A stretch of DNA of 64,000 bases from a virus: IMG/VR virus record IMGVR_UViG_3300013111_000141, positions 1 through 64,000 of that record. The stretch is one strand, 5' to 3'. This document shows positions 14,210-55,406 of the stretch, in pieces. The notes beneath the pieces were generated by a model. The model was not told the origin of the DNA. It saw nothing but the letters and a program-made list of their open reading frames with translations, and made no database searches. A program made the translations under genes and the position numbers. Within the stretch, counting starts at the first letter, position 1, and each line of letters opens with the position of its first letter.

Positions 14210-16363
14210 TCACCTCAAATCTTTATCAAAATCATCTACCATGATTGCTTCATGTTCTAAAAGTCCATCTAATTCCCCTTTCAAATTAGATTCATATGCC
14301 TTTTCTAAAATGTTTAACGCATCCTTTGTATTAGATGATGTAAAAGTTTTATCTGTCAATCTATACCTTGCATCATGATGCAAGGTCAATCTAGACCTTG
14401 CATCAAATCCCAATGAAGATTTAAAACAATCAGGAACATTAACCACAGACTTCACCATTTTACTATTTAACTCATCTGAAACACCCCTATATCTTCTACC
14501 AAATGGGAATATCAAACGTCTTAATATAAACCCAATGAACTTTGAAGGATAATTATCTAAAATGTCCTCAAACGACTTTTGAATATTATATAATCCAGAT
14601 TCAGCACCCCACGTGGCATATAATATATCATTCTTCTTATCCATATCATCAGTATCTTCGTATCGTTTTAATACAGCAGATGTTATATACAATTCAGAAA
14701 ATGCATCTGCAAACCTACCAGATATCCTTTGTCGTTTCTTAAGATTAGAACCCAACACAGCTATACTTATATCAGATAACAATGCAAAGTTCTTCGATTC
14801 CAATTCAATACGTTTATAATATTTACCAATTTCACATGAAACGTCTTTCGGTTTGGATATAAACATACCACCAGTAATGTTATGATATAATGAACCAAAT
14901 ATATTACCAATAGTATATTTAATATGTCCTATTAACGCCTTATTAAATGCAATTGCATCATTACATTCGGCAGAAGTTACTTCATCTTTTATAAATGGAT
15001 GACACCTTAAAGATCCTTGAGAAAACACAATCAACGATCTCGTTAATATATTCGCACCCTCAACAGTATTAGCAATAGGTTGTGTTATATAATAATTCAA
15101 TAATAAATTATTAGGACCATCAGATATACCCTTACCGGCTAAAATATCCATACCATCAATAACACATTGACGCATCCTTTCAGTACATTGATATTTCAAC
15201 ATAGCAGAAATAACAGAAGGTTTCTCACCATTTACTATTGCCGTAGTGGTTAGATTACACGCAGCCTCTACAACATAACATTGTCCAATTATCCTAGACA
15301 ATGGTTCTTCAATACCTTCCATCTTGGAAATTGGAATTTTAAATTGTTTTCTTATCCTAGAATATGCAGTAGTAACTTTTAATGTATGTTTAATACCAGC
15401 CATAGATAATGATGGTAATGATATTGCCCTACCAGCCGCAAGACATGCCATTAACATTCGCCAACCCTTTCCTACACCATCAATTCCACCTATAACATGA
15501 TTCAATGGTAAAAATACATCTTTACCATAATTTGGTCCATTCATAAATGCTTGTCTAGCGGGATAATGTCTGCGTCCTATACAAACACCCTTAGTATCAG
15601 TTGGAACTAATACTAAACTTATACCACCAATAGGAGGTGAATCATCCGTCTCTTTCAATAACTCATCAGGATCTACAATATGACACGCAACACCAAGTAA
15701 TGTAGATACTGGTCCAAGTGTGATATATCGTTTTTCCCAATTTAATCTAATACCTAATACCCTTTCACCCTCATATTCCCCATATTCAACAACACCATAA
15801 TCTTCCATTGCCGCAGCATCTGAACCAGAATATGGTCCTGTTAATGCAAATGCTGGTATATCCTCACCTGATGCCAATGTAGGTAACCATTTATCTTTTT
15901 GTTCTTGTGTACCGAACTCATAAAGCAATTCACCAGGACCCAAAGAATTTGGAACCATAGTAGTAATTGCTAATGATATACTTCTTGATGCTAAAATTGA
16001 TATGATACACGATTGTGCATATGCTGAAAATTCCAAACCACCATATTCTTTCTTGATATTAAGCGCAAAAAAACCATTATCTTTTAAATAATTCCACACT
16101 TCAACTGGTAAATCTTTATGAGTGATATTAACATCCCAATCCGATACCATTTCACAAACAGTATCAACTTCAGAATTAATAAAATCGTGTTCTTCTTGTG
16201 TTAATTCAGTTTGTTCTGTATTTAATAATATATCCCAATTAGGTCTACCACTAAATAACTCTGATTCCCACCATACTGTGCCAGATTCTAATGCCTCTCT
16301 TTCTGTATCTGATATTTTTGGTAAAATCTTTTGAAATAATTTCATACCATATTCATTCATCAT
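14210..16363 (-). CDS. fadE: Acyl-CoA dehydrogenase FadE (no N-terminal TM anchor)
   Basis: VPNSLGPGELL, FALTGPYSGSDA, WEKRYITL, AAGRAISLP, TVEGANILTRSL, C-terminal DUF1974-type region. Confidence 0.93.
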   Translation of the reverse strand: MMNEYGMKLFQKILPKISDTEREALESGTVWWESELFSGRPNWDILLNTEQTELTQEEHDFINSEVDTVCEMVSDWDVNITHKDLPVEVWNYLKDNGFFALNIKKEYGGLEFSAYAQSCIISILASRSISLAITTMVPNSLGPGELLYEFGTQEQKDKWLPTLASGEDIPAFALTGPYSGSDAAAMEDYGVVEYGEYEGERVLGIRLNWEKRYITLGPVSTLLGVACHIVDPDELLKETDDSPPIGGISLVLVPTDTKGVCIGRRHYPARQAFMNGPNYGKDVFLPLNHVIGGIDGVGKGWRMLMACLAAGRAISLPSLSMAGIKHTLKVTTAYSRIRKQFKIPISKMEGIEEPLSRIIGQCYVVEAACNLTTTAIVNGEKPSVISAMLKYQCTERMRQCVIDGMDILAGKGISDGPNNLLLNYYITQPIANTVEGANILTRSLIVFSQGSLRCHPFIKDEVTSAECNDAIAFNKALIGHIKYTIGNIFGSLYHNITGGMFISKPKDVSCEIGKYYKRIELESKNFALLSDISIAVLGSNLKKRQRISGRFADAFSELYITSAVLKRYEDTDDMDKKNDILYATWGAESGLYNIQKSFEDILDNYPSKFIGFILRRLIFPFGRRYRGVSDELNSKMVKSVVNVPDCFKSSLGFDARSRLTLHHDARYRLTDKTFTSSNTKDALNILEKAYESNLKGELDGLLEHEAIMVDDFDKDLR

Positions 16364-16646
16364 AAATCATACCTCTAAAATAAAATAAAATCTACCACCC
16401 ATACTATTATATATAACATTAATGGTATACCAAATGTCAATACAGACATCCAAACCGACTTAGTAACAGATTTACACAACCCATTACATTGATAATTAAT
16501 CTTTTCCCATATTCTCTCCATCCTTGACTGTACTATTTCGTTCACTTTCTTTCTTCTCCGTTTTTTGTTTATTGTTAAATATGATATCCCAATTATCTCT
16601 ATATTTTTTGTTATTTATTTTAGATTTTATAGAATCTCCTGTTATA

Positions 16647-16898: not shown

Positions 16899-16990
16899 AA
16901 TTTCCCCCCCTTTCTTTCAATTTTTTATACTCAATATATCCCCAAAACAGATAGAATACATCCTCATCCATCCAAATTTCTTTTTTCATA

Positions 16991-23173: not shown

Positions 23174-23695
23174 TTATTTAAGTTTTACACCCTTTGATGG
23201 GTGTATATCCTCTGTCTCTTTTACATGAGTTAATGATTCAATCGTAACTTCTCCTGGATATGGCCAAGTTTGTCTTGGTGGCAATTTCCCCACCTGACTC
23301 CCATTATCATACCACCGTTTACCATATGCCATTTGATTAACAGGATCTACCGTATCAAGAAAAGTAACTACTGTGGGGAAATACCCACTTTCAGTTAACT
23401 GTAAATGATATTCCCAAGTAACCGTACCATATGCAACTATTATAACTTTATCACCAACATCACATAACTTTGCTGCGGCACCATTCACTGAAATAGTAAA
23501 AGATCTTTCGTCGGGGATTGCATATGTTGTAAATCTCTCACCATTATTAATATTATATATTTCTATCTGTTGATAAGGTAATATATTAGCCTTCTCTAAT
23601 ATATCATTAGAAATTCCACAAGAACCCTCATAATCAATATCACATTCAGTAACTGTTGCAGCGTGTATTTTTGATTTTAATATCTGTATTTCCAT
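23174..23695 (-). CDS. panD: Aspartate 1-decarboxylase with C-terminal extension
   Basis: KSKIH, YEG|SC autocleavage site, NGERFTTYAI, NGAAA. Confidence 0.93.
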   Translation of the reverse strand: MEIQILKSKIHAATVTECDIDYEGSCGISNDILEKANILPYQQIEIYNINNGERFTTYAIPDERSFTISVNGAAAKLCDVGDKVIIVAYGTVTWEYHLQLTESGYFPTVVTFLDTVDPVNQMAYGKRWYDNGSQVGKLPPRQTWPYPGEVTIESLTHVKETEDIHPSKGVKLK

Positions 23696-23696
23696 G

Positions 23697-25055
23697 TCAC
23701 TCCCCTATAGGTATAAGTTCTGCTGTAAAATGTCTCAAATATGGTGGTTCTTTAATTATTCTCAATCCAACCAATTTGTCTTTATTATTGTTTATATTAT
23801 CTAAAATTTCTACAACATAATCAATATGACTTTGGGTATATACCCTACGTGGTATTGTCAAACGTAATAACTCCATATCAGCACACTTATCTTTACCACC
23901 AAACATAAGACTTCCAATCTCTACACCACGAATACCACCTTCCAAATATAAAGCACAAGCCAATACTTGTGCTGGAAATTGACTTACCGGTATATGAGAT
24001 AACATAGATTTAGCATCAATATATACTGCGTGTCCTCCAATTGGTTTAACAACAGGAATACCTAAATCTGACAGAGCATCACCTAAATATTTAACAGATT
24101 GAATCCTATATTGTAAATAATCTTCTTGTACAACTTCCTTTAACCCCTGAGATATAGCTGCCAAATCTCTACCAGATAAACCACCATAAGTAGGATATCC
24201 TTCAGTTAAAATACCAAGATTTCTAACAGGAGTAGATAATTCATCATTATTAAATGCCAAAAACCCACCCATATTTACCATTCCATCTTTCTTAGCACTC
24301 ATAGTACAACCATCAACATAAGAAAACATTTCTTGGGAAATCTCCTTTACAGTTTTATCAGAGTATCCATCCTCACGCATTTTTATAAAATATGCATTTT
24401 CAGCAAATCTACACGCATCAAGAAAAAACGGTACATTATAATGTGTACAAAGTTTCTTAATACCCCTAATGTTTTCCATTGAAACTGGTTGTCCACCACC
24501 AGAATTATTAGTAACAGTAACCATACATAATGGTATATCTCTAGAATTAGCCTCTAATAAATCCTCTAATTTGTTTAAATCCATATTACCTTTAAATGGA
24601 TGAAGATTAGACGGGTCTTTACCTTCTGATATCACTAAATCTAATGCTAATGTGTCATTATATTCTATATTAGCACGTGTCGTATCAAAATGTGTGTTAT
24701 TTGGTATTATTTTACCACTTTCACATAAAACTGAAAATAATATTCTTTCTGCTGCCCTACCTTGATGTGTTGGAAATATATATTTAAATCCAGTTAAATC
24801 CTTTATAGTCTTTTCCATATCATAATATGAAGAACACCCAGCATAAGATTCATCACCTTCAATCATTGCACCCCATTGATGGTCGGACATCGCACCAGTT
24901 CCAGAATCAGTTAATAAATCTATTAAAACATTTTCACCCTTTATTAAAAATAAATTATAATTAGCAGATTTTAAATGTAATTCCCTTTCCTCTCTAGATA
25001 TCATTTTAATAGATTCAACCATTTTAATTTTAAATGGTTCAAATATAGTTTTCAT
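23697..25055 (-). CDS. tnaA: Tryptophanase (beta-eliminating lyase)
   Basis: DLLTDSGT, HQGRAAE, HFDTT, SAKKD (PLP Lys), LRHFT (His as in TnaA rather than Tpl). Confidence 0.85.
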   Translation of the reverse strand: MKTIFEPFKIKMVESIKMISREERELHLKSANYNLFLIKGENVLIDLLTDSGTGAMSDHQWGAMIEGDESYAGCSSYYDMEKTIKDLTGFKYIFPTHQGRAAERILFSVLCESGKIIPNNTHFDTTRANIEYNDTLALDLVISEGKDPSNLHPFKGNMDLNKLEDLLEANSRDIPLCMVTVTNNSGGGQPVSMENIRGIKKLCTHYNVPFFLDACRFAENAYFIKMREDGYSDKTVKEISQEMFSYVDGCTMSAKKDGMVNMGGFLAFNNDELSTPVRNLGILTEGYPTYGGLSGRDLAAISQGLKEVVQEDYLQYRIQSVKYLGDALSDLGIPVVKPIGGHAVYIDAKSMLSHIPVSQFPAQVLACALYLEGGIRGVEIGSLMFGGKDKCADMELLRLTIPRRVYTQSHIDYVVEILDNINNNKDKLVGLRIIKEPPYLRHFTAELIPIGE

Positions 25056-25851: not shown

Positions 25852-26195
25852 AACACAAAACTTTCACCACACCCACAAGAACTTTTATCTGGAATAGTTA
25901 CTTTAAACGCAGGACTAAAAGGTCCACCAGTATAATCTATTATAGCATCTTCTACATAATCCATAGTAAAACTATCTATAACAAACATATTAAAACATTC
26001 TTCTTGTTCTGCACTCACACCACCCATAGTACCAGTCGGGCAATCTCTCCAAATTATAACATCTTCTTCATTATTAACTTCATCAATAATATCCCATTTT
26101 CCAATTAACCCAGAACAACCACCAGAATTCAAGGAATATCTAATAATACCCCCTATCTCCTTAAATTGTTCTTTTGCAGAATCAGTTACATTCAA
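25848..26195 (-). CDS. HesB/IscA Fe-S cluster assembly protein
   Basis: GGCSG ... CGCGESF. Confidence 0.85.
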   Translation of the reverse strand: MNVTDSAKEQFKEIGGIIRYSLNSGGCSGLIGKWDIIDEVNNEEDVIIWRDCPTGTMGGVSAEQEECFNMFVIDSFTMDYVEDAIIDYTGGPFSPAFKVTIPDKSSCGCGESFVL

Positions 26196-27358
26196 CGTAA
26201 ATCCACACCAATTGCTTCAGATATATTATTATAACCATCACGTTTAAGTAATTCTACAAGTCCTATATTAATTTCAGCTGAAATTTGAGGTCCGTGGAAT
26301 ATCATACCAGTAATTAAATGTATTAATGTCGCACCATTTCTTATCTTAAAATATGCATCTTCAGCAGTATCACACCCACCAATACCTATAACTATAAATT
26401 TATATCCATTATCTTTAACATGTTGAGCGCATACCTTAATTATATGATTAGTCATAGGTCTTAATACATGTCCACTCATACCACCCCTATCATATGGCAT
26501 AACTCGTTTTTCCAATTTACCCTTATGAAAGACATGTGTAGTCCTATCATCTTCTGGCACCAACTTCCTATTAACTGTAAGATTGCATGTCAAAATACCA
26601 TCAATACCATATGTATGCATAACATCTATCATCTCACAAATTTCTTCATCAGTATGATCTGGACCAATTTTACAATATACAGGATATTCATTCAATCCCA
26701 TCAATTCTCTTATACTCTTAACCTTTATTAATAATTCTGATAAATTTCCCATATCAAAAAATGGATTAGATACTCCCAGATTAGGACAACTAAGATTTAT
26801 AGTAGTATAATCCGCATATGGTGATAATCGTTTAAACGTTGTTAACAAATCATCAATAACATCATCCTTATCAGCCACACCGTTGGTAGCAGATGCTGAT
26901 ACACCACACACACCATCAACCCCTCTCCAGTTTGGAGCAACACACTCTTGCACAAATTCAGAACCAGAATTATTCAAACCATACCAAACATTAATAGATT
27001 GTGACTTAACAGCTCTCCATAATCTAACTGGTGGATTTCCCATATGCGGTTCTTTTGAGAATGACCCAAGTTCAATACCAGAAAATCCCAATTCACGGAT
27101 AACTGAAGGCAACGCACCATACTTATCAAATCCAGCAGAAATCAACAATGGATTACTATAATGAACACCATTTACACTTTGAGATAACATACTATTATCA
27201 TATCTATATAAATATCTCAATAACCTAATACCATAGGGTATCCTCTGTATCATCACTACGATTTCTTTAACTACATCGTGTGCCGTTTCAGGACACAATT
27301 TAAATAATATAGGTCGTAATAACCCCTTATATACAATCCGTTGTATTTTATACTTCAT
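26192..27358 (-). CDS. pyrD: Quinone-dependent dihydroorotate dehydrogenase (class 2)
   Basis: PETAH, AGFDK, GLNN.G, NLSCPN, KIGPD, GGMSG, IGIGG. Confidence 0.92.
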   Translation of the reverse strand: MKYKIQRIVYKGLLRPILFKLCPETAHDVVKEIVVMIQRIPYGIRLLRYLYRYDNSMLSQSVNGVHYSNPLLISAGFDKYGALPSVIRELGFSGIELGSFSKEPHMGNPPVRLWRAVKSQSINVWYGLNNSGSEFVQECVAPNWRGVDGVCGVSASATNGVADKDDVIDDLLTTFKRLSPYADYTTINLSCPNLGVSNPFFDMGNLSELLIKVKSIRELMGLNEYPVYCKIGPDHTDEEICEMIDVMHTYGIDGILTCNLTVNRKLVPEDDRTTHVFHKGKLEKRVMPYDRGGMSGHVLRPMTNHIIKVCAQHVKDNGYKFIVIGIGGCDTAEDAYFKIRNGATLIHLITGMIFHGPQISAEINIGLVELLKRDGYNNISEAIGVDLR

Positions 27359-27951: not shown

Positions 27952-28437
27952 TTAACATCTATTATTATATCTATAAATACCATCATCAATCACTTTCTTA
28001 GCCTCTAAATTGTCACCCCACCCATTAACTTTAGACCACTTATTCTCATCTAAATCCTTATAATGTTCAAAGAAATGATATATACTCTCCAACTGTTCAA
28101 TCGGTACATCTATAATATCATACCAATCAGAATATACCTCATCATCAGGCACTGACAATATTTTAGGATCATCACCCGACTCATCCACCATATGTAAAAC
28201 CCCAATAACATTACATAATACTTTACAGTTAGGTATTAACGGATATGGTGTTATTACTAACACGTCAACAGCATCATTATCTCCACCTATTGTGTTTGGC
28301 AAACAACCATAATTACAAGGGTAATGCATTGATGTATGTAAAAATCTATCAAATCTAAGCACACCCGTTTTATGATCAACTTCATATTTAATATGTGAAG
28401 TTCCCATAGACATTTCAACCAATACATCAATATTCAT
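27952..28437 (-). CDS. ppa: Family I inorganic pyrophosphatase
   Basis: KYEVD, YPCNYG, DNDAVDV, DESGDDPK, FFEHYKDL. Confidence 0.93.
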   Translation of the reverse strand: MNIDVLVEMSMGTSHIKYEVDHKTGVLRFDRFLHTSMHYPCNYGCLPNTIGGDNDAVDVLVITPYPLIPNCKVLCNVIGVLHMVDESGDDPKILSVPDDEVYSDWYDIIDVPIEQLESIYHFFEHYKDLDENKWSKVNGWGDNLEAKKVIDDGIYRYNNRC

Positions 28438-28606: not shown

Positions 28607-29248
28607 TTAGGAGTCATGATATATTATAAGAATGTTATGTAACCACTCAACCTCGTAGTATTCTGCAAATTCGTGTATTCCAGAAGATAAAAAATATAAA
28701 GCAAATATAGGAAATACATATGATGAAGCTTTAAATATATATTTAGTATTAAAATTATTAATACGTGTCCCAATATACACTAACATACTAATACCAATCA
28801 AAAATCCAAATAACATACCAAGAACATCAGATAATACTGATGTATATAATGAGAAATAAAATAACACAACTTCTACACCTTCTCTCAATATAGTGAAAAA
28901 TGATACTAACACAAATGCCATGGAATTATTATATTGCAAATGTTCATTAATATGTTTATTTGCATTAACACACCAAACAGAAATATATAATAACATCAAT
29001 CCAGTTATAACCTGCACATAACCTTCAAATAACTCTAAATCAGAATGTTCAAATATGTCAACAAATAAATAAGCAACTAAGATTGATGACAGTATACCTA
29101 ACAACGAACCCAAATATACATATCTCTTATGTCCAGATTCCGTCAACTTTAATATTATTATCAAAAGTAATAATATCTCTATACCTTCTCTAACAATAAT
29201 AAATAAAGAACTACTTAATGACGGTAAAAAATAATTCCCAATTTCCAT
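28607..29248 (-). CDS. FTR1/EfeU-family iron permease
   Basis: Two REGxE motifs (REGIE, REGVE); about 6 TM helices. Confidence 0.85.
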   Translation of the reverse strand: MEIGNYFLPSLSSSLFIIVREGIEILLLLIIILKLTESGHKRYVYLGSLLGILSSILVAYLFVDIFEHSDLELFEGYVQVITGLMLLYISVWCVNANKHINEHLQYNNSMAFVLVSFFTILREGVEVVLFYFSLYTSVLSDVLGMLFGFLIGISMLVYIGTRINNFNTKYIFKASSYVFPIFALYFLSSGIHEFAEYYEVEWLHNILIIYHDS

Positions 29249-29849: not shown

Positions 29850-30803
29850 TCATGATACTAACGCCTTTAATGATTCACCATTACGAAATCTTCGTATCGT
29901 CTCCGATACCAAGTCCTTTACACCTATTACATTTATCTTTGATGTTAACTCAGAAGTATGTTCTATAGAATCTGTAATATACAAAGTCCCGATATCAGAC
30001 TGTTCTATTCGTTCAATAGACTTTCCAGAAAAAACACCATGAACTGCAACACAATCAACATTCACCGATCCAGACAACTTTAATGCATCTACAGCACCAA
30101 CCAATGTTCCCCCACCATCAATCATATCATCTACTATAACACATTTTTTACCTTCAACATCACCAATAACATTCATAACCTCTGACATACCCGGTTCTGG
30201 GCGACGTTTATCAATAATTGCGATTGGTAAATTTAATTCCTTTGCAAAATACCTTGCACGACCAGAACCACCCACATCAGCAGCAACCACAACATCCCAA
30301 TAAGAAGGAACAATTGCGGCAACAATAGAATCCCTCATAGTTTTTAAAGCTGATATATGTTCACAAACAACATTATTATTAAAAAATGCTTGTGTTTGCA
30401 AAGAATGTAAATCCATACAGATTACTGAATTTATACCAGAATTACAGAGCATATTAGCAAACACCTTACCAGATATAGGACTTCTATTAGTACGTCTATC
30501 TTGTCTAGCATATGCATAATATGGAAATATAACATTAATAACAGATGGATTTGAACGTCTAACCGCATCAATAAGTAACATCAATTCCATTATATCATTA
30601 TTTCTATTAGAACCTACCCCAGATTTAAATCCAGATATAATGAAAACTTCCTCTAACCGAATGTTCTCCTTAATCTCTACATAAATCTCTGAATCAGGAA
30701 AATCTATAATTTTCACCTTTGTCAATCTCATACCAAGATTCTCAGCAACTTGTTTTGCCAACTTTGTGTTAGACCGTGTTGAAATTATTATAGATTTTTT
30801 CAT
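29850..30803 (-). CDS. prs: Ribose-phosphate pyrophosphokinase
   Basis: FPDSE, PYYAYARQDRR, DLHS.Q, DKRR, VDDMIDGGGT. Confidence 0.95.
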   Translation of the reverse strand: MKKSIIISTRSNTKLAKQVAENLGMRLTKVKIIDFPDSEIYVEIKENIRLEEVFIISGFKSGVGSNRNNDIMELMLLIDAVRRSNPSVINVIFPYYAYARQDRRTNRSPISGKVFANMLCNSGINSVICMDLHSLQTQAFFNNNVVCEHISALKTMRDSIVAAIVPSYWDVVVAADVGGSGRARYFAKELNLPIAIIDKRRPEPGMSEVMNVIGDVEGKKCVIVDDMIDGGGTLVGAVDALKLSGSVNVDCVAVHGVFSGKSIERIEQSDIGTLYITDSIEHTSELTSKINVIGVKDLVSETIRRFRNGESLKALVS

Positions 30804-32530
30804 AATCGTTCTTTACATAATGTTTCAATTATATTTTTCATTGCCATAGATTGTTCATCAGGGTCAATCTCTATATTCAATACATAAGATTGTAACTCAT
30901 CATCTAATGCAGTTTCTAATGCATTCCTGAATTGAAAAGAATCTGATATATACATCCCAACACCACCATCCATTAAATCTGTTATTTTATCATATCTCCA
31001 ATTATGAATATCATTGAACTCACCTTCCATAATTGCCTTTTCAGTAGAATATCCCCTATTGTTAAGTATAAGAATAACAGTATTCAACTCATTACGAATA
31101 TGTGATGAAAATTCAGAACCCGTCATTTGAAAAGCACCATCACCGACAACAACTATTGGTCTTTTATGTGGTTTGGCATATTTAACACCAACTGCGGCTG
31201 GAACTGAAAATGACATAGATGTATAATAAGCCATACATAAAAATTGTCCTTTCCTCATAGGAACATCAATAATACCAAATAAAGATTCACCTATATCAGA
31301 TATTACTATATGATCCTCTGTTATCAATTCACCTAGAGTATCAAATACATATTCTAATTTAGTAGGACTAGTCATATCATGTGACTTAAAAGTTAATCTA
31401 CTAGTGTCTATAATATTATTCCATCTACTTATACAATTATCAGATTGAATATCAGAATCATCTAAATATACCAAAAATGAACGAACCAACTCATAAAAAC
31501 TAGAAGTTGTAGATTTTAATGTTTTAACATGTTTATTTTCAAACATGATACCATCATCCATATTAATAGAAATATCAGAAACAAAATCAAATGATTCAAT
31601 ATCCGTATTAACTATACCAATAGTGACAATACAATCTGATTTTTTTATCTCATCAACAACTGACGAATCAGAAAATAAACTTGAAACACACCCAATAGAA
31701 TTTCTACTAAACTCAGAAATTGTTGATTTACCCAACAACGTAGTGAATATTGGAATATTTAACTTCTTTGCAAAATTAAGAATATGATTTTCTAATGAAT
31801 TACGAAATACCTCATGACCAATAATTAGAACCCTATTAGTTGCAGATTTAAATTTATTCAAATCATCATATGGTAAATTTATAGATTTACATTCTTTAGA
31901 AAATGGAGTATCCTTAACAATAACATTATTAGAATCCTTCACATATGTTGGAAAGATTTTTGATGGTACATCATCCCCATATACTGTTTGAAATTTCTTC
32001 AAGTATTCATCAACTGAACGTACTATATCTTTATTTGAAAATTCAATATAAACTGGTCTAGAATGTTTTCGCATTTTATTCAATGCCAAATGAATCATAG
32101 ACATATTAAAAAACATATCTTCAGAATCTAACGAATAAGTATTAGTGGTTATATTCTTAAATATATCCCTTTGTGTATTTGCATTATTGATTGTATGGTG
32201 TCTATTTGGATTTACCAATAAATCATCAGATGATGGTTTGCCAACAAGAATAACTACTGGTGATCTTTCCGCATATGCACCCGCAACTGAATTCATAATA
32301 TTCATAGCACCAACAGAATAAGTAACACATACAACACCACACCCACGTAATCTACCATATGCATCAGCGGCATATCCAGCTGAATCTTCCCTACTTACTC
32401 CTACGTATTCTATATCAGAATGTTCTTCAATTTCACGCATAAAATTTAACGTGTAATCACCCGGTATACCAAATATATGACCTGCACCATATAACTTTAA
32501 CTGTTCTATTAAAAAATGTCCTAAATTCAT
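30800..32530 (-). CDS. ThDP-dependent alpha-keto acid decarboxylase (indolepyruvate/pyruvate decarboxylase family)
   Basis: FGIPGDY, YAADAYGR, AGAYAE.SP, HH, GDGAFQMTG...NN.GY..E. Confidence 0.88.
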   Translation of the reverse strand: MNLGHFLIEQLKLYGAGHIFGIPGDYTLNFMREIEEHSDIEYVGVSREDSAGYAADAYGRLRGCGVVCVTYSVGAMNIMNSVAGAYAERSPVVILVGKPSSDDLLVNPNRHHTINNANTQRDIFKNITTNTYSLDSEDMFFNMSMIHLALNKMRKHSRPVYIEFSNKDIVRSVDEYLKKFQTVYGDDVPSKIFPTYVKDSNNVIVKDTPFSKECKSINLPYDDLNKFKSATNRVLIIGHEVFRNSLENHILNFAKKLNIPIFTTLLGKSTISEFSRNSIGCVSSLFSDSSVVDEIKKSDCIVTIGIVNTDIESFDFVSDISINMDDGIMFENKHVKTLKSTTSSFYELVRSFLVYLDDSDIQSDNCISRWNNIIDTSRLTFKSHDMTSPTKLEYVFDTLGELITEDHIVISDIGESLFGIIDVPMRKGQFLCMAYYTSMSFSVPAAVGVKYAKPHKRPIVVVGDGAFQMTGSEFSSHIRNELNTVILILNNRGYSTEKAIMEGEFNDIHNWRYDKITDLMDGGVGMYISDSFQFRNALETALDDELQSYVLNIEIDPDEQSMAMKNIIETLCKERL

Positions 32531-32574: not shown

Positions 32575-33357
32575 CTATAGTTCTTCTGGATTACCCCTTG
32601 TCGATTCTAAATGTTCAGCCCACACACAACACTCATGATACCCAACCGATGAATGATCATTAAATGAATCAATTTCAAATTGCAATAATCCACCAAACAT
32701 ACCCCATATATATTGTCCAATCAAATACATTCTAGAATATCCAGAAACAACCCTACCATTACAATCAAAATATTTTAATAATCCAATATGTCTGAATCCA
32801 ACAAGTTCTAATGGGTGTCGTGTAACTATATCACAATTATTTTTAAATCTATAAAATGTTGGAGTAAACGAATCAGCAAACTCAGAATCACCCACTCTAG
32901 GCGACCCAAATGTATATCCTATAGAATCTTTCCCACCAAACCGTGATGAAGCTAAAGTACATAAAGCAGCTCCCAAACTATGACCTGTAAAATATACATT
33001 CCTGTGTTTATCTCCGGCCATTGAATAATCTACATAATGTTGAAGCAAATCATCATATATCAAGTCTAATGCACCTTTAAATCCCCTATGAACACTACCA
33101 ATACTGTCTGATTCAACCTTTCTAAATTTTATATCTGCCTCAATATCTGACAATTGTGTTGGTTCCGTCCCACGAAATACATATATAATATCTTCATCAT
33201 CCCATAATCCATAACATTGAGTAGACCCATTATTAAAAAACTTAATATCATATTTCTCTGAATATATTTCTGAGAAATCTACAACATCCAAATAAGCATT
33301 CATAGACAATCCAGAAAAAAACATTGCATTTTTATAACTAAATTCCCTATTTAACAT
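32575..33357 (-). CDS. Class 3 lipase
   Basis: FRGT, VHRGF, GHSLG, TFGSPRVG, D.V, H. Confidence 0.92.
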   Translation of the reverse strand: MLNREFSYKNAMFFSGLSMNAYLDVVDFSEIYSEKYDIKFFNNGSTQCYGLWDDEDIIYVFRGTEPTQLSDIEADIKFRKVESDSIGSVHRGFKGALDLIYDDLLQHYVDYSMAGDKHRNVYFTGHSLGAALCTLASSRFGGKDSIGYTFGSPRVGDSEFADSFTPTFYRFKNNCDIVTRHPLELVGFRHIGLLKYFDCNGRVVSGYSRMYLIGQYIWGMFGGLLQFEIDSFNDHSSVGYHECCVWAEHLESTRGNPEEL

Positions 33358-34184: not shown

Positions 34185-34341
34185 AGAGGATTTCTGTTGC
34201 CAAGTATCCCCAAACTCCGCATACTTATATACTAAGCTGCAACCGCAAAATTATCATCTGCATTTATTTTTTTGATTTTTACATCTTTCTTGATGAATAG
34301 TCCATATACAATATAATACATTGTCGAATCTGTTCTCCCCC
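34185..34341 (-). ncRNA. ssrA: Two-piece tmRNA, coding piece (tag ADDNFAVAA)
   Basis: 5' GGGGGAGAACAGATTCGAC; ATAAAT|GCA resume context; tag ends in AA-stop; 3' CTTGGCAACAGAA motif of alpha-type tmRNA. Confidence 0.88.
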
Positions 34342-34622
34342 ACAAAAATTGTCTAGTCACAACCCAAAAGTCCTGCAGAACTTCATGAACGCCACTTGCG
34401 GCTAAGGATACCCGGGAGTTTGTTGTCCCGTGTTCACATACGTCCATATATACATTGTAGAACCCATCATCGCTGGTTTGGTGCTAAGTTAAATGAACCC
34501 GTTGGCTCTGGGGGAATTCCCCCTCACCATCTCTCGTACGCTCCATCTATTCTACTAAGTATACCGTGTGTCACACATTCCGTATACATTGAATAATATA
34601 CATCTACACTAAACAATTTATG
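34342..34622 (-). ncRNA. Unassigned structured RNA in the tmRNA intervening segment
   Basis: Closed by AAATTGTTTAGT/ACTAGACAATTT; several internal helices; GC-richer than its flanks. Confidence 0.55.
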
Positions 34623-34672
34623 TGGAAGAGGTGGGAATCGCACCCACGTCCAACATACATAAAATATACTTC
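34623..34672 (-). ncRNA. ssrA: Two-piece tmRNA, acceptor piece
   Basis: GGAC-GTGGG-TGCGATT-CCCAC-CTCTTCC-A; pairs with GGGGGAG to give G3:U70; full CCA not encoded. Confidence 0.88.
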
Positions 34673-34678
34673 AAACTA

Positions 34679-34981: not shown

Positions 34982-36962
34982 CTACGTTCTCCACTAATTG
35001 CGAACCTTGTGAATGATATTGTTTAGTAATTTCTTTGTTTACTTCATCTGAATAATGTAATGGTCCACCCCTAAATGGAGCAAATCCAGTACCAAAAATA
35101 ATACCAGAATCTATAAGGTCAGAAGATTCTACAATACCCTCATCTAAACATAATTTACACTCTGAAATAATTTTCCCTATTAACCTTGACTTTATCTCTA
35201 TTTTAGGATCTGCATAAATCTTATCTACGGGTTTACCTTTATTATATATATAAAACCCCCTACCAGATTTAATACCCAATTTACCTTTGTCTACTAACTT
35301 CTTTAATCTCTTTGGAACAGTAATTCCAAGATCCTCACTTATTATATCCGTAACAAAATAACAAACATCAAGTCCTACAGTATCTGCCAATAATAAAGGT
35401 CCCATTGGCATACCAAAATCAGTAAAAGAATTGTCAATTTCTTCTTTACTATATCCTTCATCTAACATATTAATAGCCTCAATAAGTGTAGGCATTAACA
35501 CACGATTAACTAAAAATCCTGGACTTGATTTAACTTTTAATGGTAACTTATCAATATGTCTACAAAATGACATAGACTTCTCTATAACATCCTCTGAAGT
35601 AATATCTGAATATACCACTTCAACCAAAGGCATTTTTGCAACTGGATTAAAAAAGTGTATACCAACTAATCTCTCAGGATTTTTCATTTCACTTGATAAT
35701 ACTTCCAACTTGATAGAAGATGTATTAGTGCCCAATATAGCGGTACTTTTCATTTCAGATTCTAATTCACTATATAAGTGACGTTTAATATCCGCATTTT
35801 CAACAATAGCCTCAATGACTATATCTGCGGAAGATATACCATATCCATTTTTATCAGGAATCAACCTATCATACACTTCATTGATTAAATAATCCTTCCC
35901 AGAAAATCTTTTTGCATAAAATTTATACGATCTTTTCATTGCGGCAGCTATGGTGTTATCATCAATATCCTGTAAAGTCACCTTATATCCCCTTAGAGAC
36001 GCCCACATTGCAATATCTCCACCCATTGCACCAGCACCTATAACGTGGACATGTTTAAGATCTAACTTAGATTTATCACCAGAAGATTTAAGTAAATCCT
36101 GTAACTTAAACACTCGTAATAAATTCTTCGCAGTATCTGTCATTGCTAACTTAGAAACTGACTCCGCCTCTGCATTCATAAGATGATGCTCATTATATCC
36201 ATATTTTTCCCATATATCAACTAAAGCATATGGTGCTGGATAGTGTGATTTTTTTACCTCTTTCCTTAAAGTTCTACGCAATTGCATTGATAATAACCTT
36301 CTACCAATACCAGAATTCAATACATAATCTAATTTATCTGGTCTTCTAACTGGTGGACACTTTGCAAGTACATCTTCCGCAGATTTAACTAATAAACGTT
36401 CAGGAACCGCATAATCAACTAATCCCATCTTTTTTGCTTGATATACTGATAAAGTACGTCCACTTAACATCATACCCATAGCCTTAATAACACCAAGAAC
36501 TCTAATAGACCTAACAGAACCACCAAATCCAGGATGTATACCCAACTTAACTTCAGGAAATCCGACTCGGATATTAGGTGAATCTAATATAATTCTATAA
36601 TCACATGATAATGCAAGTTCCAATCCACCACCAAGACACAATCCATTAATTAATGCTAATGTAGGAAATTCCATGTCATCAATTAACCACATCACTTCTT
36701 GTCCTTTAGTAATGGCTTCATAAGCATCATCATACTCATGAAAATCCTTAAATTCTGTAACATCAGCACCAGCAATAAACCCAGTTGATTTATCAGAACA
36801 AATAACCATACCATCAGGATTATCAGATTTAACCTCTAATAATACATCTTTTAATTCCGTTAATACTTCACCAGATAATACATTCATACTACCATAAGAA
36901 TAATCAAAATGTACCCATGCTATATTGCTAAAATATTTTAATTTGAAATGTTTATAATTCAT
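34974..36962 (-). CDS. fadJ: Fatty-acid oxidation multifunctional alpha subunit (enoyl-CoA hydratase/3-hydroxyacyl-CoA dehydrogenase)
   Basis: FIAGAD, GGGLELAL, PEVKLG, GAGAMG, IEAIVE, NTSS, HFFNP, PGFLVNR, PMGP. Confidence 0.93.
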   Translation of the reverse strand: MNYKHFKLKYFSNIAWVHFDYSYGSMNVLSGEVLTELKDVLLEVKSDNPDGMVICSDKSTGFIAGADVTEFKDFHEYDDAYEAITKGQEVMWLIDDMEFPTLALINGLCLGGGLELALSCDYRIILDSPNIRVGFPEVKLGIHPGFGGSVRSIRVLGVIKAMGMMLSGRTLSVYQAKKMGLVDYAVPERLLVKSAEDVLAKCPPVRRPDKLDYVLNSGIGRRLLSMQLRRTLRKEVKKSHYPAPYALVDIWEKYGYNEHHLMNAEAESVSKLAMTDTAKNLLRVFKLQDLLKSSGDKSKLDLKHVHVIGAGAMGGDIAMWASLRGYKVTLQDIDDNTIAAAMKRSYKFYAKRFSGKDYLINEVYDRLIPDKNGYGISSADIVIEAIVENADIKRHLYSELESEMKSTAILGTNTSSIKLEVLSSEMKNPERLVGIHFFNPVAKMPLVEVVYSDITSEDVIEKSMSFCRHIDKLPLKVKSSPGFLVNRVLMPTLIEAINMLDEGYSKEEIDNSFTDFGMPMGPLLLADTVGLDVCYFVTDIISEDLGITVPKRLKKLVDKGKLGIKSGRGFYIYNKGKPVDKIYADPKIEIKSRLIGKIISECKLCLDEGIVESSDLIDSGIIFGTGFAPFRGGPLHYSDEVNKEITKQYHSQGSQLVENVGG

Positions 36963-36965: not shown

Positions 36966-38270
36966 TTATCTCTTTAAATTTTCAACTAATATTGCACCAC
37001 CTTGCCCATGCCCAATACATAAAGATGCAACCCCATAATGACCACCATTTGATTCTAACGTCTTAATTAAATGATATACTATCCGTGTTCCAGAAGCACC
37101 TACAGGATGACCCATACTAATAGAACCACCATGAACATTTAGTTTTTCATCAGGTATTAACCCAAATGGTTCATCCAATCCAAACTCAGATAAACAATAA
37201 TCCACATCATTCATTGCCCTTGTACAACCAATAACTTGTGATGCAAAAGCTTCATTTAATTCCCAACTATCAATATCATCACATCGTAACCCATTTCTCA
37301 TAACAAGAGGAACTATTGACTGAACTGGACCCAATCCCATCTCTGATGGATCTACTCCAGCCCACTTAGTATCAATAATTTTTGCAATAGCTTTATCACG
37401 TAACCCATACTTATCCAAGGCATCCTCACTTGCCAACAAAACAAATGAAGCACCATCCGTAATAGGTGAAGAATTACCCGCAGTCACATTACCAAATATT
37501 TTATCAAAAACTGGTCTTAATTTCCCTAATTTTTCAATAGTGTTCTTAGATCTAACAGATTCGTCTTTATTATAAAAATTCCCATCAGTATCATATATAG
37601 TAACAATCTCATCCTCTAATACATTAGTATTTTGTGATATCGACGCTTTCATATGACTGTTTAATGAATAATCATCCATATCATTTCTAGATATATTAAA
37701 CTTATATGCCAAATTCTCAGCAGTCTGACCCATTGATAAATTAATAGTTGGATCTTTTAATGCACGTAATAAACTAATCACTGGGACTAATAACTTAGGT
37801 CTAAACTTAAGTAACACAGACAACTTCTTAGATAATGTCTTAGCTAATGTAAATTCAGACAACCACATAGTCATATCATCATTAAATAATAATGGTGCCC
37901 TACTCATAGTTTCCGTACCACCAGCAATAATCAAATCGGACTGTCCACAAGATATACTCCTATATGCCGAATCAATTGACTGCAAACCAGAAGCACAATT
38001 TCGTTGTACCGTATATGCCGGTATATTAACATTAAGACCTAATCGTAATGCTAACAATTTTGCAATATTACACTCATCAGCGTTAGGATTCATACAACCA
38101 ACAACCAATTCATCCACATCATCATTACTAATATCATTACGAATTAACATAGGTCTAACCGCCTGAATCGCCAAATCCAATGCCTTAAACTTTCCAGGAC
38201 TTCCCTTCGCCTTTAAAAAAGGTGTCCTACTACCATCTACAATATATACATCATTTAACTTGTATTTCAT
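36966..38270 (-). CDS. fadI: Acetyl-CoA C-acyltransferase (thiolase)
   Basis: RNCASG, NEAFA, GHPVGASG, LCIGHGQG. Confidence 0.92.
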   Translation of the reverse strand: MKYKLNDVYIVDGSRTPFLKAKGSPGKFKALDLAIQAVRPMLIRNDISNDDVDELVVGCMNPNADECNIAKLLALRLGLNVNIPAYTVQRNCASGLQSIDSAYRSISCGQSDLIIAGGTETMSRAPLLFNDDMTMWLSEFTLAKTLSKKLSVLLKFRPKLLVPVISLLRALKDPTINLSMGQTAENLAYKFNISRNDMDDYSLNSHMKASISQNTNVLEDEIVTIYDTDGNFYNKDESVRSKNTIEKLGKLRPVFDKIFGNVTAGNSSPITDGASFVLLASEDALDKYGLRDKAIAKIIDTKWAGVDPSEMGLGPVQSIVPLVMRNGLRCDDIDSWELNEAFASQVIGCTRAMNDVDYCLSEFGLDEPFGLIPDEKLNVHGGSISMGHPVGASGTRIVYHLIKTLESNGGHYGVASLCIGHGQGGAILVENLKR

Positions 38271-38669: not shown

Positions 38670-39689
<1,020 letters not shown>

Positions 39690-39701
39690 TAAATCACCGC
39701 A

Positions 39702-41633
39702 TTATTTGGTTTCGGGTTTACCCTCTGGAACAGGATCCACTGGTTCTTCAACCACCTCTGCATTGACAACTTCGGCATCTACAGTCTCGGATGTTGTAGT
39801 GGAATCATCTCCAACATCTTCCCCTGTTGGTTCTGGTTTTTGTAATTTTGCAGACAACTCTACTAATGATTGTACTTTAGTATTAATATCATCTAAATCT
39901 TCACCAGACATAGACTCTTTTAATTCTGCAACACTATTTACAATATCAGTTCTTTCTTCATCAGTAATTACAATTTCCTCATCTGATAATTTACCCTCAA
40001 CATCATTAATAAATCCTTCAGCCATATTTCTAGCACCAACTAATGCAGTATACTTCTCATCTGCCTCTTTATGTTCTTCACCCTCTTTAATCATACGTTC
40101 TACATCCTCATCAGATAATCCAGATGAAGATTTAATTTCAATGGACTGTTCCTTACCAGTATTTTTATCTTTGGCAGAAACATGCATAATACCATTAGCA
40201 TCAATATTGAATTCAACTTCAATTTGTGGTGTTCCGCGTGGTCCTGGTTGAATTTCTGTCAAATCAAACCTACCTAAAGAATTGTTACCAGAAGCAACTG
40301 AACGTTCACCTTGCAGAACATGAATAGTAACTGCCGGTTGATTATCTTCGGCAGTTGAAAATACTTCACTTTTTTTCGTTGGAATAGTAGTATTCTTTTC
40401 AATTAATGTGGTCATTACACCACCCATAGTTTCAATACCTAATGATAATGGAGTTACATCAAGCAATAATACATTATCAATACCACCAGATAACACACCA
40501 CCCTGTGTAGCAGCACCAAGAGCAACTGACTCATCAGGATTTACATCCTTTCTCGGTTCAATACCAAAAATAGATTTTACCATTTCTTGAACTTTAGGCA
40601 TTCTAGTTTGTCCACCAACTAAAATAACATCATCAACCTTAGTAACATCTGCATCCTTTAAAGCAGTAACACATGGGGTTTTTGTACGTTCAATTAATTC
40701 AGATACCATCTTCTCCAATTTAGAACGTGAAATCTTAACATTTAAATGTTTAGGACCAGTTGCATCCGCAGTAATATATGGTAAATTTACTTCAGTTTCT
40801 TGAGTCGATGACAACTCAATTTTACACTTCTCTGCCGATTCTTTTAATCGTTGTAATGCAATAGGGTCATTATGAAGATCCACCCCGTTTTCTTTTTTAA
40901 ATTCATCACAAAGATAATCAATAAGTCGTAAATCAAAATCCTCACCACCTAAAAATGTATCACCATTAGTAGACAATACTTCAAAGGAATATTCTCCATC
41001 CACATTAGACATCTCAATAATAGAAACATCAAAAGTACCACCACCAAGATCATAAACAGCAACTACCTTATCATCTTTAACATCACCTTTATCTAAACCA
41101 TAAGATAAAGCTGCAGCTGTAGGTTCATTGATAATTCGCATAACATCTAGTCCAGCAATCTTACCAGCATCCTTTGTTGCTTGTCTTTGTGAATCATTAA
41201 AATAAGCAGGAACAGTAATAACTGCCTGTGTCACTTCAGAACCCAAATATGACTCCGCATCTTTTTTTAATTTCATTAAAATTTTTGATGAAATTTCTGG
41301 GGGAGATAATAACTCACCACCAGATTTTACCCACGCATCACCATTATCCGCCTCTACAATGTCATAAGGCACCATGGATATGTCCTTTTGAACTGCATCA
41401 TCTTTAAACTTTCTGCCAATTAATCTCTTAACCGCAAACAATGTATCTTTTGGATTAGTCACCGATTGTCTCTTAGCTGACTGTCCTACTAATATTTCCG
41501 AATCCGAATGTGAAACTATAGATGGTGTCGTCCTAGAACCTTCACCATTTTCAATTACTACTGCCTTACCATTCTCTAACACAGCTGCGCATGAATTAGT
41601 AGTACCCAAATCAATACCAATAATATTACCCAT
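39702..41633 (-). CDS. dnaK: Chaperone DnaK (Hsp70)
   Basis: [34 protein letters not shown]. Confidence 0.97.
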
Positions 41634-53072: not shown

Positions 53073-53123
53073 GACTTTACTCCAATATTTCTAACTAATA
53101 TATATATAATAACACAAAAACAA

Positions 53124-55406
53124 CTATAAGTCAAGTCTTTTTTCAATAAAAATTGAAATTCTTTCCCATATTAAATCCGAATTATTATACAATATACCAT
53201 GACAATCTGAACCAATAATATGCATTTCCTTATCAGAGGAAACCACATTATTATATATATAATCAGCACCCCTAACTGAAACCAATGAATCATCTTTAGA
53301 ATATATAATCAACATAGGAACTGTTACATTAGATAATGTACTCTTAATACTTTTAACCAATCTTCCTACCTCATATATACTAAACGTTGGTATTATCCAA
53401 TAATTAATATGTTCATTCTCAGGGATATTCTTAAAAAATGTTTTAACTCCATTACATGATAATAATGTACTAACAACCTTATTAATACCGTTAATTATAG
53501 GTACAAACTTAATTCTAGTATCATCATAAAAAATAGGAGCAGATATAACAACTATAGATTTAACCCTAGAATCATTTATAAACTCTTTACGTAATGCAAT
53601 TGCACCACCAGTAGAAAACCCAACAATCACAATATTTTTAGACAACATAGAAGCCATGTCAAAATAACTATAAACCGATTTTATCCAATCATTATGGTTA
53701 TATTGCATCAACTCATATGGTGACGTACCATGACCAACGATTCTAGCACCAACAACAATATAACCAATTCCACACAAATAATCACCAAACCCCCTAACTT
53801 CTGCCGGTGATGACAATAATCCATGAATTAACAATATTACCACACCATTAGACTTTTTAGGAAATAAAATAAAAGGATTATCATCAGAAGTATTAATTTC
53901 AGAAAATTTAGAATTATATTTATCATTACTATATAATTTCTTATCATATGTTAACGATAGTTTCTGATCATCCAATAAATGTAATGCTATATCTTTATTA
54001 GTAACCTTATGCATATCACTAATAACACTCTTAACAACATTACCAACCAAAGAAACTGGTTGTATCTCATTATAATATACAACTAATAAATTCTCAACCC
54101 TAACTGTTAATGGATCAACATTAAAATTAAACTTACCAGATAAATATATAGTATTACTCCCTATGACCAATACACCTTGTTTCTCAAGAGACTCAATATA
54201 TTTTAATACATCTACATTATTACCACTTAATATATCACCATAAAGATGTGGAGTTAATAACCCACTATGTAATCTAATTCCAGACTTCTGTTGTAATGTC
54301 TTTAACACCAAATATAATTCTTTATGTAATTGATCCTTGGAAATAGATACTATATTTTGTTTAAATCTATACATCAATAAGCAAGATATTAAATGACTTA
54401 AATTAATAGTAACATAAGAATAAATACTCTTAGTGTAATAGTCACGTGTAAGATTAGAACACTTTATAAGATGCTTATGCAACATATCGACTTTCCAAGA
54501 CTTATCAACATCACCAATAGAAAACACATCATCTAAGGATTTTATAGAATCAGTAAATGTTTCAGTTAACGACGACTTCCATGAATGCCAAATACCGGAG
54601 GTAGATATCACTTTGCTCATAACAACATCCATATCAGTATCTTTAGTAATTAAATTACCCTCAACTAACAACTCTTCTGTTTGTCGTAATGTGAGTCCAT
54701 TAGAAATATATTCAACTGCCTTCAATAAAACATTATCAGTTACACGCAAAGGATAAAACGTTATATTAGATGCAACTATATTAGTAGGTTTTGATACTGC
54801 ATCCAATAACTCATCCAAACTATTAAAATCTAATTCCTTTTGCCACATTAATAATCTATCCATGTCCATATCTCTATGAGCATTACGAACTATAAACTTA
54901 AACACCTCCAACCCATGTGACAAAACAGCTGCCCCAGTATGTTGTTTCCGTACTTTCATAGTTGTTTGACATAACATATTATAATGTCCTTCATCATCAA
55001 CAACCCTATGATCCTTTACCATTCCACCTTCAGGAAAAATAACAACTTTATGTCCGTGTAATATTTGTTTCGCTAAAATAGGAAATAATCTGGGGTGATT
55101 ATGAGGGACAACTCCTAACTTACTTAAATAGGATGATAATATATTATCATTTTTAAAAAATTCACCAGACCCAACAGAATAACAATAACTACCATTTTCT
55201 TCATGTATCAAATATTGAGGGATAAATGTTTCTATACGAGAAAAATGATTAAATACAAATATACTACCATCGTCAATATTAATATCAGAATGAATATTAA
55301 TATTAATTCTTAATAATCGTTTCAGAATTCTAAATGAACGTATAGATAATCTATACATACGTTTATCTATATCAATCCAATCACGATTATACTTAAACCC
55401 ACTCAT
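53124..55406 (-). CDS. Glycerolipid acyltransferase-like domain fused to an alpha/beta-hydrolase (esterase/lipase)
   Basis: NHFSRIE and IFPEGG (PlsB/C-like); HG, GFSTG, D, H triad in the C-terminal domain. Confidence 0.75.
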   Translation of the reverse strand: MSGFKYNRDWIDIDKRMYRLSIRSFRILKRLLRININIHSDINIDDGSIFVFNHFSRIETFIPQYLIHEENGSYCYSVGSGEFFKNDNILSSYLSKLGVVPHNHPRLFPILAKQILHGHKVVIFPEGGMVKDHRVVDDEGHYNMLCQTTMKVRKQHTGAAVLSHGLEVFKFIVRNAHRDMDMDRLLMWQKELDFNSLDELLDAVSKPTNIVASNITFYPLRVTDNVLLKAVEYISNGLTLRQTEELLVEGNLITKDTDMDVVMSKVISTSGIWHSWKSSLTETFTDSIKSLDDVFSIGDVDKSWKVDMLHKHLIKCSNLTRDYYTKSIYSYVTINLSHLISCLLMYRFKQNIVSISKDQLHKELYLVLKTLQQKSGIRLHSGLLTPHLYGDILSGNNVDVLKYIESLEKQGVLVIGSNTIYLSGKFNFNVDPLTVRVENLLVVYYNEIQPVSLVGNVVKSVISDMHKVTNKDIALHLLDDQKLSLTYDKKLYSNDKYNSKFSEINTSDDNPFILFPKKSNGVVILLIHGLLSSPAEVRGFGDYLCGIGYIVVGARIVGHGTSPYELMQYNHNDWIKSVYSYFDMASMLSKNIVIVGFSTGGAIALRKEFINDSRVKSIVVISAPIFYDDTRIKFVPIINGINKVVSTLLSCNGVKTFFKNIPENEHINYWIIPTFSIYEVGRLVKSIKSTLSNVTVPMLIIYSKDDSLVSVRGADYIYNNVVSSDKEMHIIGSDCHGILYNNSDLIWERISIFIEKRLDL

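Follow-up and report, generated by a model that had tools for sequence, protein, structure and literature searches.

Core beta-oxidation genes in marine T4-like phages

A marine T4-like myophage carries three intact genes, coding for a FadE-type acyl-CoA dehydrogenase, a FadJ-type bifunctional enzyme and a 3-ketoacyl-CoA thiolase (together called the fad genes here), whose predicted products cover the four core reactions of beta-oxidation. They lie in a 64,000-nucleotide window, bases 1-64000 of the 96,760-bp linear IMG/VR virus record IMGVR_UViG_3300013111_000141 (contig G000), for which CheckV gives a completeness of about 54%. Known metabolic genes of phages belong to photosynthesis, the pentose phosphate pathway, or the metabolism of nucleotides, sulfur and phosphate; within the searchable literature, core beta-oxidation is a pathway new to this list. 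Taking the data as a whole, the best explanation is probably that this set keeps up or boosts acyl-CoA breakdown during infection.

RESULTS

Three intact genes for predicted beta-oxidation enzymes

A sequence-only reading of the window had described intact FadE, FadJ and FadI genes covering all four steps of beta-oxidation. Coordinates and family assignments were borne out by Pfam domains and catalytic residues:

14210-16363, minus strand: FadE-type acyl-CoA dehydrogenase, 717 amino acids (aa); Pfam Acyl-CoA_dh N, M and C plus ACDH_C
34974-36962, minus strand: FadJ/FadB-type enoyl-CoA hydratase/3-hydroxyacyl-CoA dehydrogenase, 662 aa; Pfam ECH_1, 3HCDH_N and 3HCDH
36966-38270, minus strand: 3-ketoacyl-CoA thiolase (PRK08170 type, FadI-like length), 434 aa; Pfam Thiolase_N and Thiolase_C

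The three genes are full length, and every catalytic residue checked is kept. The FadE-type protein passes the NCBIfam model NF007000 (905 bits against a cut-off of 600), and its catalytic Glu435, in the motif TVEGANILTRS, is invariant in a 10-sequence alignment that includes cellular FadEs such as that of Proteus. It misses the cut-off for Escherichia coli FadE proper (NF038187; 846 versus 1300 bits), aligning with positions 69-711 of the 816 in that model. The FadJ-type enzyme likewise scores below the equivalog cut-offs, both for FadJ, its best model (493 versus 869 bits), and for FadB (457 versus 870). Comparison with E. coli FadJ (8bnu_C) showed that it keeps both hydratase glutamates (GGLELAL and GFPEV), the GAGAMG NAD motif and the Ser/His/Glu/Asn set of the dehydrogenase (NTSS, HFFNP, LVEV and VNR). 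It belongs to a subfamily of 640-680 aa found also in Methylococcales and other Gammaproteobacteria.

The FadI assignment held in part. The thiolase keeps its Cys-His-Cys set (the Cys of NCASG, the His of GHPVGASG and the Cys of CIGHGQG) and has several FadI-like traits, namely its length, full-length matches to trifunctional enzyme (TFE) beta/FadI chains, and its position as the first of the pair, 3 bp before the FadJ-type gene. Since it passes the acetyl-CoA C-acetyltransferase model NF006030/PRK08170 (607.5 bits; cut-off, 593) and misses the FadI equivalog (311 bits; cut-off, 560), the label 'FadI' is only approximate. The FadE gene sits 18.6 kb from the thiolase and FadJ-type genes.

The genes lie in a T4-like phage genome

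The window is uniform in composition, with a GC content of 0.27-0.36 per 2-kb window, and 136 of its 141 open reading frames (ORFs), including all the genes claimed by the sequence-only reading, are on the minus strand. GC content at third codon positions (GC3) is 0.19-0.22 in the fad genes, equal to that of core phage genes. The fad genes are thus AT-rich like their neighbors and co-oriented with them, and they are scattered among T4-type genes (RNase H, RNR, ThyX and SegE inside the window), as had been proposed.

The remainder of the contig codes for a replication and repair set comprising a gp41-type helicase, UvsX, a gp43-type polymerase (987 bits in PHROG), gp46/47 and a UvsW-like helicase, and for virion proteins identified with PHROG: the major head protein (494 bits), scaffold, portal (599 bits), tail sheath, TerL, and gp15-, gp14- and gp13-type proteins. 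PHROG matches thereby cover the T4 core of gp23, gp20, gp18, TerL, gp43, gp41, UvsX and gp46/47. The major head protein is 60% identical to that of the OM43 myophage Melnitz, 58% to that of Pelagibacter phage HTVC008M and about 57% to those of cyanomyophages. The source contig is a marine T4-like (Kyanoviridae-like) myophage, and for this assembly it is settled that the molecule bearing the fad genes also bears those for capsid and terminase.

The fad genes recur in diverged phage lineages

Relatives of the window's genes were found on IMG/VR viral contigs from more than 10 metagenome datasets, in independent assemblies (15 contigs for FadE, 12 for FadJ and 7 for the lipase described below). 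Over its entire length, the window is colinear with a 115-kb contig, G001; jointly, G000 and G001 span about 134 kb of a genome probably near 180 kb. In a 60.9-kb contig, G002, the core genes are far diverged (DNA polymerase, 43% identity; UvsX, 56%) and the gene order differs from that of the window. Its accessory genes show identities of 58% for FadE, 78% for the thiolase, 77% for FadJ, 61% for the lipase, 90% each for isocitrate lyase (ICL) and an HpcH-family lyase, 85% for PanD and 75% for PRPP synthase.

A further contig, L114, has the order gp22, gp23 (52% identity), UvsW-like (48%), thiolase (87%), FadJ (80%), gp47 (46%), a thiamine pyrophosphate (TPP) enzyme (83%), gp46 (39%) and alanine dehydrogenase (66%). 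With the thiolase-FadJ pair between capsid/UvsW-like genes and gp46/47, the fad genes of this lineage sit among hallmark phage genes. In L118 (GC content, 0.40), a CobS-like phage gene is followed by a thiolase (60%) and a FadJ (57%). Thiolase, FadE and FadJ matches also fell on contigs of identical length (82,529, 116,667 and 10,279 bp), which ties them to the same contigs. The fad genes are therefore present in at least four diverged T4-like lineages. As host-type metabolic genes within bona fide phage genomes, with phage genes on both sides, they are genuine phage-borne auxiliary metabolic genes.

Between phage lineages, accessory genes are much more alike than core genes (77-99% versus 39-71% identity), which suggests either exchange among phages or much stronger constraint. 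The divergence between G000 and G001 is itself a mosaic: synonymous divergence (dS) is 0.07-0.35 for most accessory genes and 0.53 for a fusion gene described below, and reaches 0.85-1.0 for DNA polymerase, gp41, gp46, RNase H and DnaJ. DnaK is 96% identical between the two contigs, the adjacent DnaJ only 59%. This pattern points to recombination between lineages.

Purifying selection and phage-specific clades

Relative to G001, the ratio of nonsynonymous to synonymous divergence (dN/dS) is 0.12 for FadE, 0.20 for FadJ, 0.09 for the thiolase, 0.25 for the lipase and 0.23 for the fusion; relative to G002 it is 0.12-0.19, with dS near saturation. Together with the GC3 values, these ratios support the view that the fad genes have ameliorated to phage codon usage and evolve under purifying selection.

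Phylogenies had been proposed as a check for phage-specific clades, and maximum-likelihood trees (quick search, with Shimodaira-Hasegawa-like approximate likelihood ratio test [SH-aLRT] support only) recovered such clades. All FadEs of viral contigs, together with unnamed short metagenome proteins, form one clade (SH-aLRT, 99), whose sister group consists of unnamed long forms, one of them labelled as coming from a gammaproteobacterial metagenome-assembled genome. None of the 31 usable named cellular FadEs fell inside the phage clade (row L041 of a second FadE tree, a wrong frame, was disregarded), and the best named cellular match has at most 51% identity. A third subclade of short FadEs comprises P0007, P0008, P0010 and P0011, of which P0010 and P0011 matched nothing in the viral-contig scans. 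The FadJ tree contains a 25-row clade (SH-aLRT, 100) that takes in every viral sequence but no named cellular one; proteins of Methylococcales type are its weakly supported sister group. Thiolase matches fall in the same steps, at 79-98%, then 60-63%, then 54-58% identity in Gammaproteobacteria. These data support phage-specific FadE and FadJ clades and a long residence of the genes in phages.

Loss of the membrane anchor in phage FadE

Cellular FadEs start with about 75 hydrophobic residues that no protein of the phage clade has, and the phage FadE lacks some of the C-terminal tail as well. Among 120 matches, a transmembrane (TM)-like segment occurs within the first 110 residues of 87 of the 108 long forms and of none of the 12 short ones. 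The stop-to-stop frames of short FadEs, 718, 708 and 747 aa long (718 for the phage FadE), leave no room for an anchor segment. As judged from these alignments and frames, the N-terminal membrane anchor of cellular FadEs has disappeared from the phage form.

One PHROG family annotated as of unknown function, phrog_15032, has an 814-position profile of the size of E. coli FadE, with a match to FadE over positions 73-709; the sequences behind this family are probably host-derived FadEs of E. coli type.

A probable single origin from a bacterial operon

A thiolase and/or FadJ-type gene lies at most 6 kb downstream of fadE in 26 of 80 cellular FadE loci. The order fadE-thiolase-fadJ is found in about 12 of these 26, mostly gamma- or betaproteobacterial; thiolase and FadJ there are 45-54% identical to their phage counterparts. 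In alphaproteobacterial loci, fadJ precedes a more distant thiolase of about 31% identity. Because the fadE-thiolase-fadJ order recurs in cellular loci at 45-54% identity, the phage genes probably derive from one capture of an operon of broadly gammaproteobacterial type and were dispersed within the phage genome thereafter. This makes doubtful the earlier statement that the genes do not look like one captured host block.

Predicted acetyl-CoA-consuming enzymes

Two further genes of the window may bear on the fate of acetyl-CoA:

59393-60670, minus strand: isocitrate lyase (ICL); NF011645, 737 bits against a cut-off of 562
1691-2701, minus strand: HpcH/CitE-family (malyl-CoA-lyase-like) C-C lyase; Pfam HpcH_HpaI, 128 bits

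ICL is 99% identical to its homolog in G001 and 90% to that in G002. The HpcH-type lyase scores under every NCBIfam equivalog cut-off. In L006 (241-4662), ICL, HpcH and FadE genes stand in a row, with ICL two genes upstream of FadE. ICL is a likely sink for acetyl-CoA. An ICL homolog with 52.5% identity, annotated as a hypothetical protein, also occurs in Phage C48C1 (OQ984149.1, L135; a complete 156-kb member of the Kyanoviridae) at 5995-7236; no fad genes were found in that genome.

Lipase, fusion protein and other accessory genes

The remaining genes named by the sequence-only reading are as follows:

32575-33357, minus strand: class 3 lipase, 260 aa; Pfam Lipase_3 (PF01764), 71 bits against a cut-off of 22
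53124-55406, minus strand: 760-aa fusion of a probable PlsC-type acyltransferase (N-terminal) and a Hydrolase_4 serine hydrolase (C-terminal); Pfam
23174-23695, minus strand: aspartate 1-decarboxylase PanD; Pfam, 127 bits; TIGR00223, 109 bits against a cut-off of 106
27952-28437, minus strand: inorganic pyrophosphatase Ppa; Pfam PF00719, 170 bits

The class 3 lipase call is upheld by its Pfam score and by a Ser-Asp-His set, Ser127 (in GHSLG), Asp176 and His235, that is invariant in five phage homologs down to 48% identity. The protein has no signal peptide, TM segment or hydrophobic windows. Its relatives in G001, G002 and L128 are 96%, 61% and 45% identical, respectively. A structure model built from the five-sequence alignment had a mean predicted local distance difference test (pLDDT) score of 45.6, too poor for folds to be compared.

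For the presumed acyltransferase-esterase fusion, the hydrolase half stands, with a clear C-terminal Hydrolase_4 domain and a GFSTG motif. The acyltransferase half is marginal: its match to Acyltransferase (PF01553) reaches 22.4 bits against a cut-off of 23, and its motifs are NHFSRIE (HX4E in place of HX4D) and FPEGG. Bacterial clusters with the same fusion architecture exist, in some of which 83-93% of members carry PF01553. The fusion is 81% identical to that of G001 and is absent from G002.

PanD and Ppa were confirmed by their Pfam scores. PanD keeps the YEGS self-cleavage site and has a C-terminal extension of about 75 aa beyond the decarboxylase domain, which is conserved in relatives.

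Between the lipase and the FadJ-type gene lies a permuted (two-piece) transfer-messenger RNA (tmRNA) gene (34232-34680, minus strand; Rfam RF04321, 89.9 bits against a gathering score of 47), for which ARAGORN gave no call. A 100-aa ORF without a family assignment (34679-34981, minus strand) shares 8 nucleotides with the end of the FadJ-type gene; it is 94-97% conserved in close relatives and is absent from G002. Directly after the thiolase gene comes a full-length DnaJ and DnaK (Hsp70, 819 bits) pair (38670-41633, minus strand). The window also codes for a tryptophanase-like lyase (23697-25055), an indolepyruvate-decarboxylase-like TPP enzyme (30800-32530) and alanine dehydrogenase (12492-13601); in L114 (11964-16576), the TPP enzyme and alanine dehydrogenase flank gp46, just downstream of gp47. 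Other accessory genes are an FTR1-like iron permease fragment (28607-29248), a glutathione S-transferase (56471-57115), DHODH (26192-27358) and PRPP synthase (29850-30803).

As pointers to the host, the capsid protein is nearest those of OM43 and SAR11 phages, the tmRNA is of the permuted type, and the fad genes look gammaproteobacterial.

DISCUSSION

A model for acyl-CoA breakdown in infected cells

We propose that a soluble, anchor-less FadE, the thiolase and the FadJ-type enzyme would run the four core reactions on acyl-CoAs, with fatty-acid activation (FadD) and an electron sink supplied by the host. The phage copies would sustain or boost acyl-CoA breakdown in infection and so yield acetyl-CoA, NADH and reduced flavin. 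The phage ICL and malyl-CoA-lyase-like enzyme could then convert acetyl-CoA to C4 acids from which aspartate, nucleotides and CoA would be made; genes for PanD, DHODH, PRPP synthase and RNR lie close by. For the release of fatty acids, the class 3 lipase, predicted to be cytosolic, would be the best candidate, and the burning of host membrane or storage lipid released by it appears a reasonable reading. We infer the direction of flux, the source of the lipid, the links to the lipase and the glyoxylate enzymes, and the timing of expression. A broader version, which we put forward only tentatively, is a portable pathway, evolved in phages, that leads from lipid to C4 acids. It would consist of the lipase, the anchor-less FadE, the thiolase-FadJ pair, ICL and a malyl-CoA-lyase-type enzyme replacing malate synthase, and its genes would move between lineages as cassettes.

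Several observations weigh against the proposed support of host acyl-CoA breakdown. The contig is only about 54% complete (CheckV). The best fit of the thiolase to an acetyl-CoA C-acetyltransferase model makes short-chain substrates possible, and co-regulation is not evident because the fad genes are dispersed over the window. A scan for sigma-70 promoters was uninformative (76 sites versus 70.5 expected), as was, with regard to timing, a scan for TATAAATA, which is depleted (11 sites versus 21 expected) and has no site directly upstream of the fad genes. The absence of FadD and electron transfer flavoprotein (ETF) genes, first remarked for the window, extends further: no AMP-binding acyl-CoA synthetase (FadD) or ETF was found in the whole contig, in G001, in G002 or in two further related records, each of these five records having exactly one acyl-CoA dehydrogenase. 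Malate synthase is absent from the same five, and no sign of FadL-type uptake was found in the approximately 134 kb of this phage type. In view of these missing functions, the pathway is not self-contained. Since neither FadD nor ETF was found in related records, the host most likely provides both activation and the electron sink; as no malate synthase was found in them, the HpcH-type lyase may stand in for it. FadE-type enzymes are not known to have an established natural electron acceptor, so that the missing ETF is not strong evidence against function.

Alternative explanations

The reading of the fad genes as host DNA, joined by misassembly or carried as the host flank of a prophage, is all but refuted. 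IMG/VR does hold such cases, and the GenBank 'phage' matches for these enzymes are mislabelled bacterial contigs. One such case is G003 (L027-L029, IMGVR_UViG_3300003691_000008), a 51.8-kb 'complete' record of a temperate phage that we rejected as an instance of viral fad genes: an integrase abuts a FadE at the contig end that is of the long form, with homology to the anchor segment, and therefore represents host flank. It is the sole viral contig with a long form. The fad genes described here have no integrase context, are flanked on both sides by phage genes in many independent assemblies, share the composition and GC3 of phage genes and form phage-specific clades. The colinearity of G001 with the window and the location of the fad genes of L114 led us to reject the chimera and prophage-flank readings; chimerism is excluded because in one lineage the fad genes lie between capsid genes and gp46/47. 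We regard it as very improbable, too, that the set runs in reverse, building acyl chains or hydroxyacids for the phage by thiolase condensation and reduction. The thiolase and FadJ-type reactions are reversible, and the name of the thiolase model is a biosynthetic one, but FadE-type flavoenzymes are not known to work reductively under physiological conditions, no enoyl reductase or thioesterase was noted, and the co-occurring ICL points to acetyl-CoA consumption.

Two other readings separate the lipase and the fusion from beta-oxidation. In one, which we consider rather unlikely, the fad enzymes act on acyl-CoAs that do not stem from membrane or storage glycerolipids, such as short-chain 3-hydroxyacyl-CoAs of polyhydroxyalkanoate (PHA), imported fatty acids, or breakdown products of branched-chain or other organic acids, and the lipase and the fusion are unrelated to them. 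This would fit a thiolase that passes the acetyl-CoA C-acetyltransferase model and not that of FadI, the weak likeness of the hydrolase half of the fusion to an intracellular PHA depolymerase (40 bits against a cut-off of 300), the absence of the fusion from G002, and the 1.6 kb, with the tmRNA gene and small ORFs, that separate the lipase from FadJ. However, the use of polyhydroxybutyrate needs no dehydrogenase of the FadE (long-chain) type; the bacterial FadE-thiolase-FadJ operons are fatty-acid operons; and the lipase accompanies the thiolase and FadJ in two lineages whose DNA polymerases share 43% identity. This travelling of the lipase with the fad genes in diverged lineages also counts against the other reading, in our view a still more unlikely one, by which the roles of the lipase and the fusion lie in membrane remodelling, lysis or superinfection exclusion and the beta-oxidation module uses whatever acyl-CoA the host makes; so does the lack of a signal peptide or TM segment in the lipase. 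In its favor, class 3 lipases occur in unrelated phages without beta-oxidation genes (Cylindrospermopsis phages, Salicola SCTP-2 and phrog_21992), the fusion architecture is that of a functionally uncharacterized bacterial family, and neither the lipase nor the fusion adjoins the fad genes.

Relation to known systems

The phage set for acyl-CoA breakdown resembles proteobacterial fadE-thiolase-fadJ operons and E. coli FadE and FadIJ (the anaerobic trifunctional enzyme; PDB 6YSV and 8BNU) in its domain sets and catalytic residues. As in those systems, the thiolase gene precedes the FadJ-type gene with a tiny gap, and identities to gamma- and betaproteobacterial copies are 45-54%. Unlike in the proteobacterial operons, the phage FadE gene is 18.6 kb away, and its product lacks the N-terminal membrane segment of about 75 aa and part of the C-terminal tail. 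In contrast to the E. coli enzymes, the phage set misses the FadJ, FadB, FadI and E. coli FadE equivalog cut-offs, and no FadD, FadL or regulator was found in the phage.

Among viruses, reads of fadB and fadL were reported from Pacific viromes (Hurwitz et al. 2013, PMC4053976). The idea there is the same, i.e., viral fatty-acid oxidation supporting the energy supply of infected marine cells; those data are short reads without genome context, whereas here the complete core set is placed on long T4-like contigs, with evidence from phylogeny and selection. A 2022 review (PMC9270025) covers Prymnesium kappa virus RF01, whose genes for lipid catabolism include those of a lipase and an acyl-CoA dehydrogenase, and states that neither an enoyl-CoA hydratase nor a ketothiolase was known in any giant virus. 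The phage shares the lipase and the acyl-CoA dehydrogenase with that virus but has a hydratase and a thiolase as well, and it is a prokaryotic virus with a separate acquisition. An aceBA operon is present in the T4-like environmental genome TARA_ERS478052_N000008 (PMC5332604), and ICL in predicted Pelagibacter-virus contigs (PMC10721903). ICL is thus shared with our phage, whereas no beta-oxidation genes are reported from those genomes; in comparison with the aceBA genome, a malyl-CoA-lyase-like gene is found here in place of malate synthase. Host fatty-acid degradation increases in low-phosphate virocells (PMC11170926), and a survey of pelagimyophages makes no mention of the genes described here (PMC7029224).

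In the searchable literature we found no paper describing this gene set in a phage genome, which is not proof of absence. GenBank contained no genuine phage isolate with these enzymes, and FadJ, the thiolase, ICL and the lyase all lack a PHROG family.

Implications

In searchable papers, viral fatty-acid oxidation has so far been supported by short virome reads and by an incomplete set in a single giant virus. A full core set in several phage lineages would extend the range of pathways taken over by phages to lipid catabolism and would give concrete enzymes for complementation and assay. The comparison with G003 also provides a criterion for real viral fad genes, namely a short-form FadE within the phage clade and flanked by phage genes, as opposed to a long form beside an integrase at a contig end. 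The anchor-less phage FadE would be a natural tool for studying the electron acceptor of FadE, which is poorly understood, and phage beta-oxidation would bear on the rerouting of carbon in infected ocean cells.

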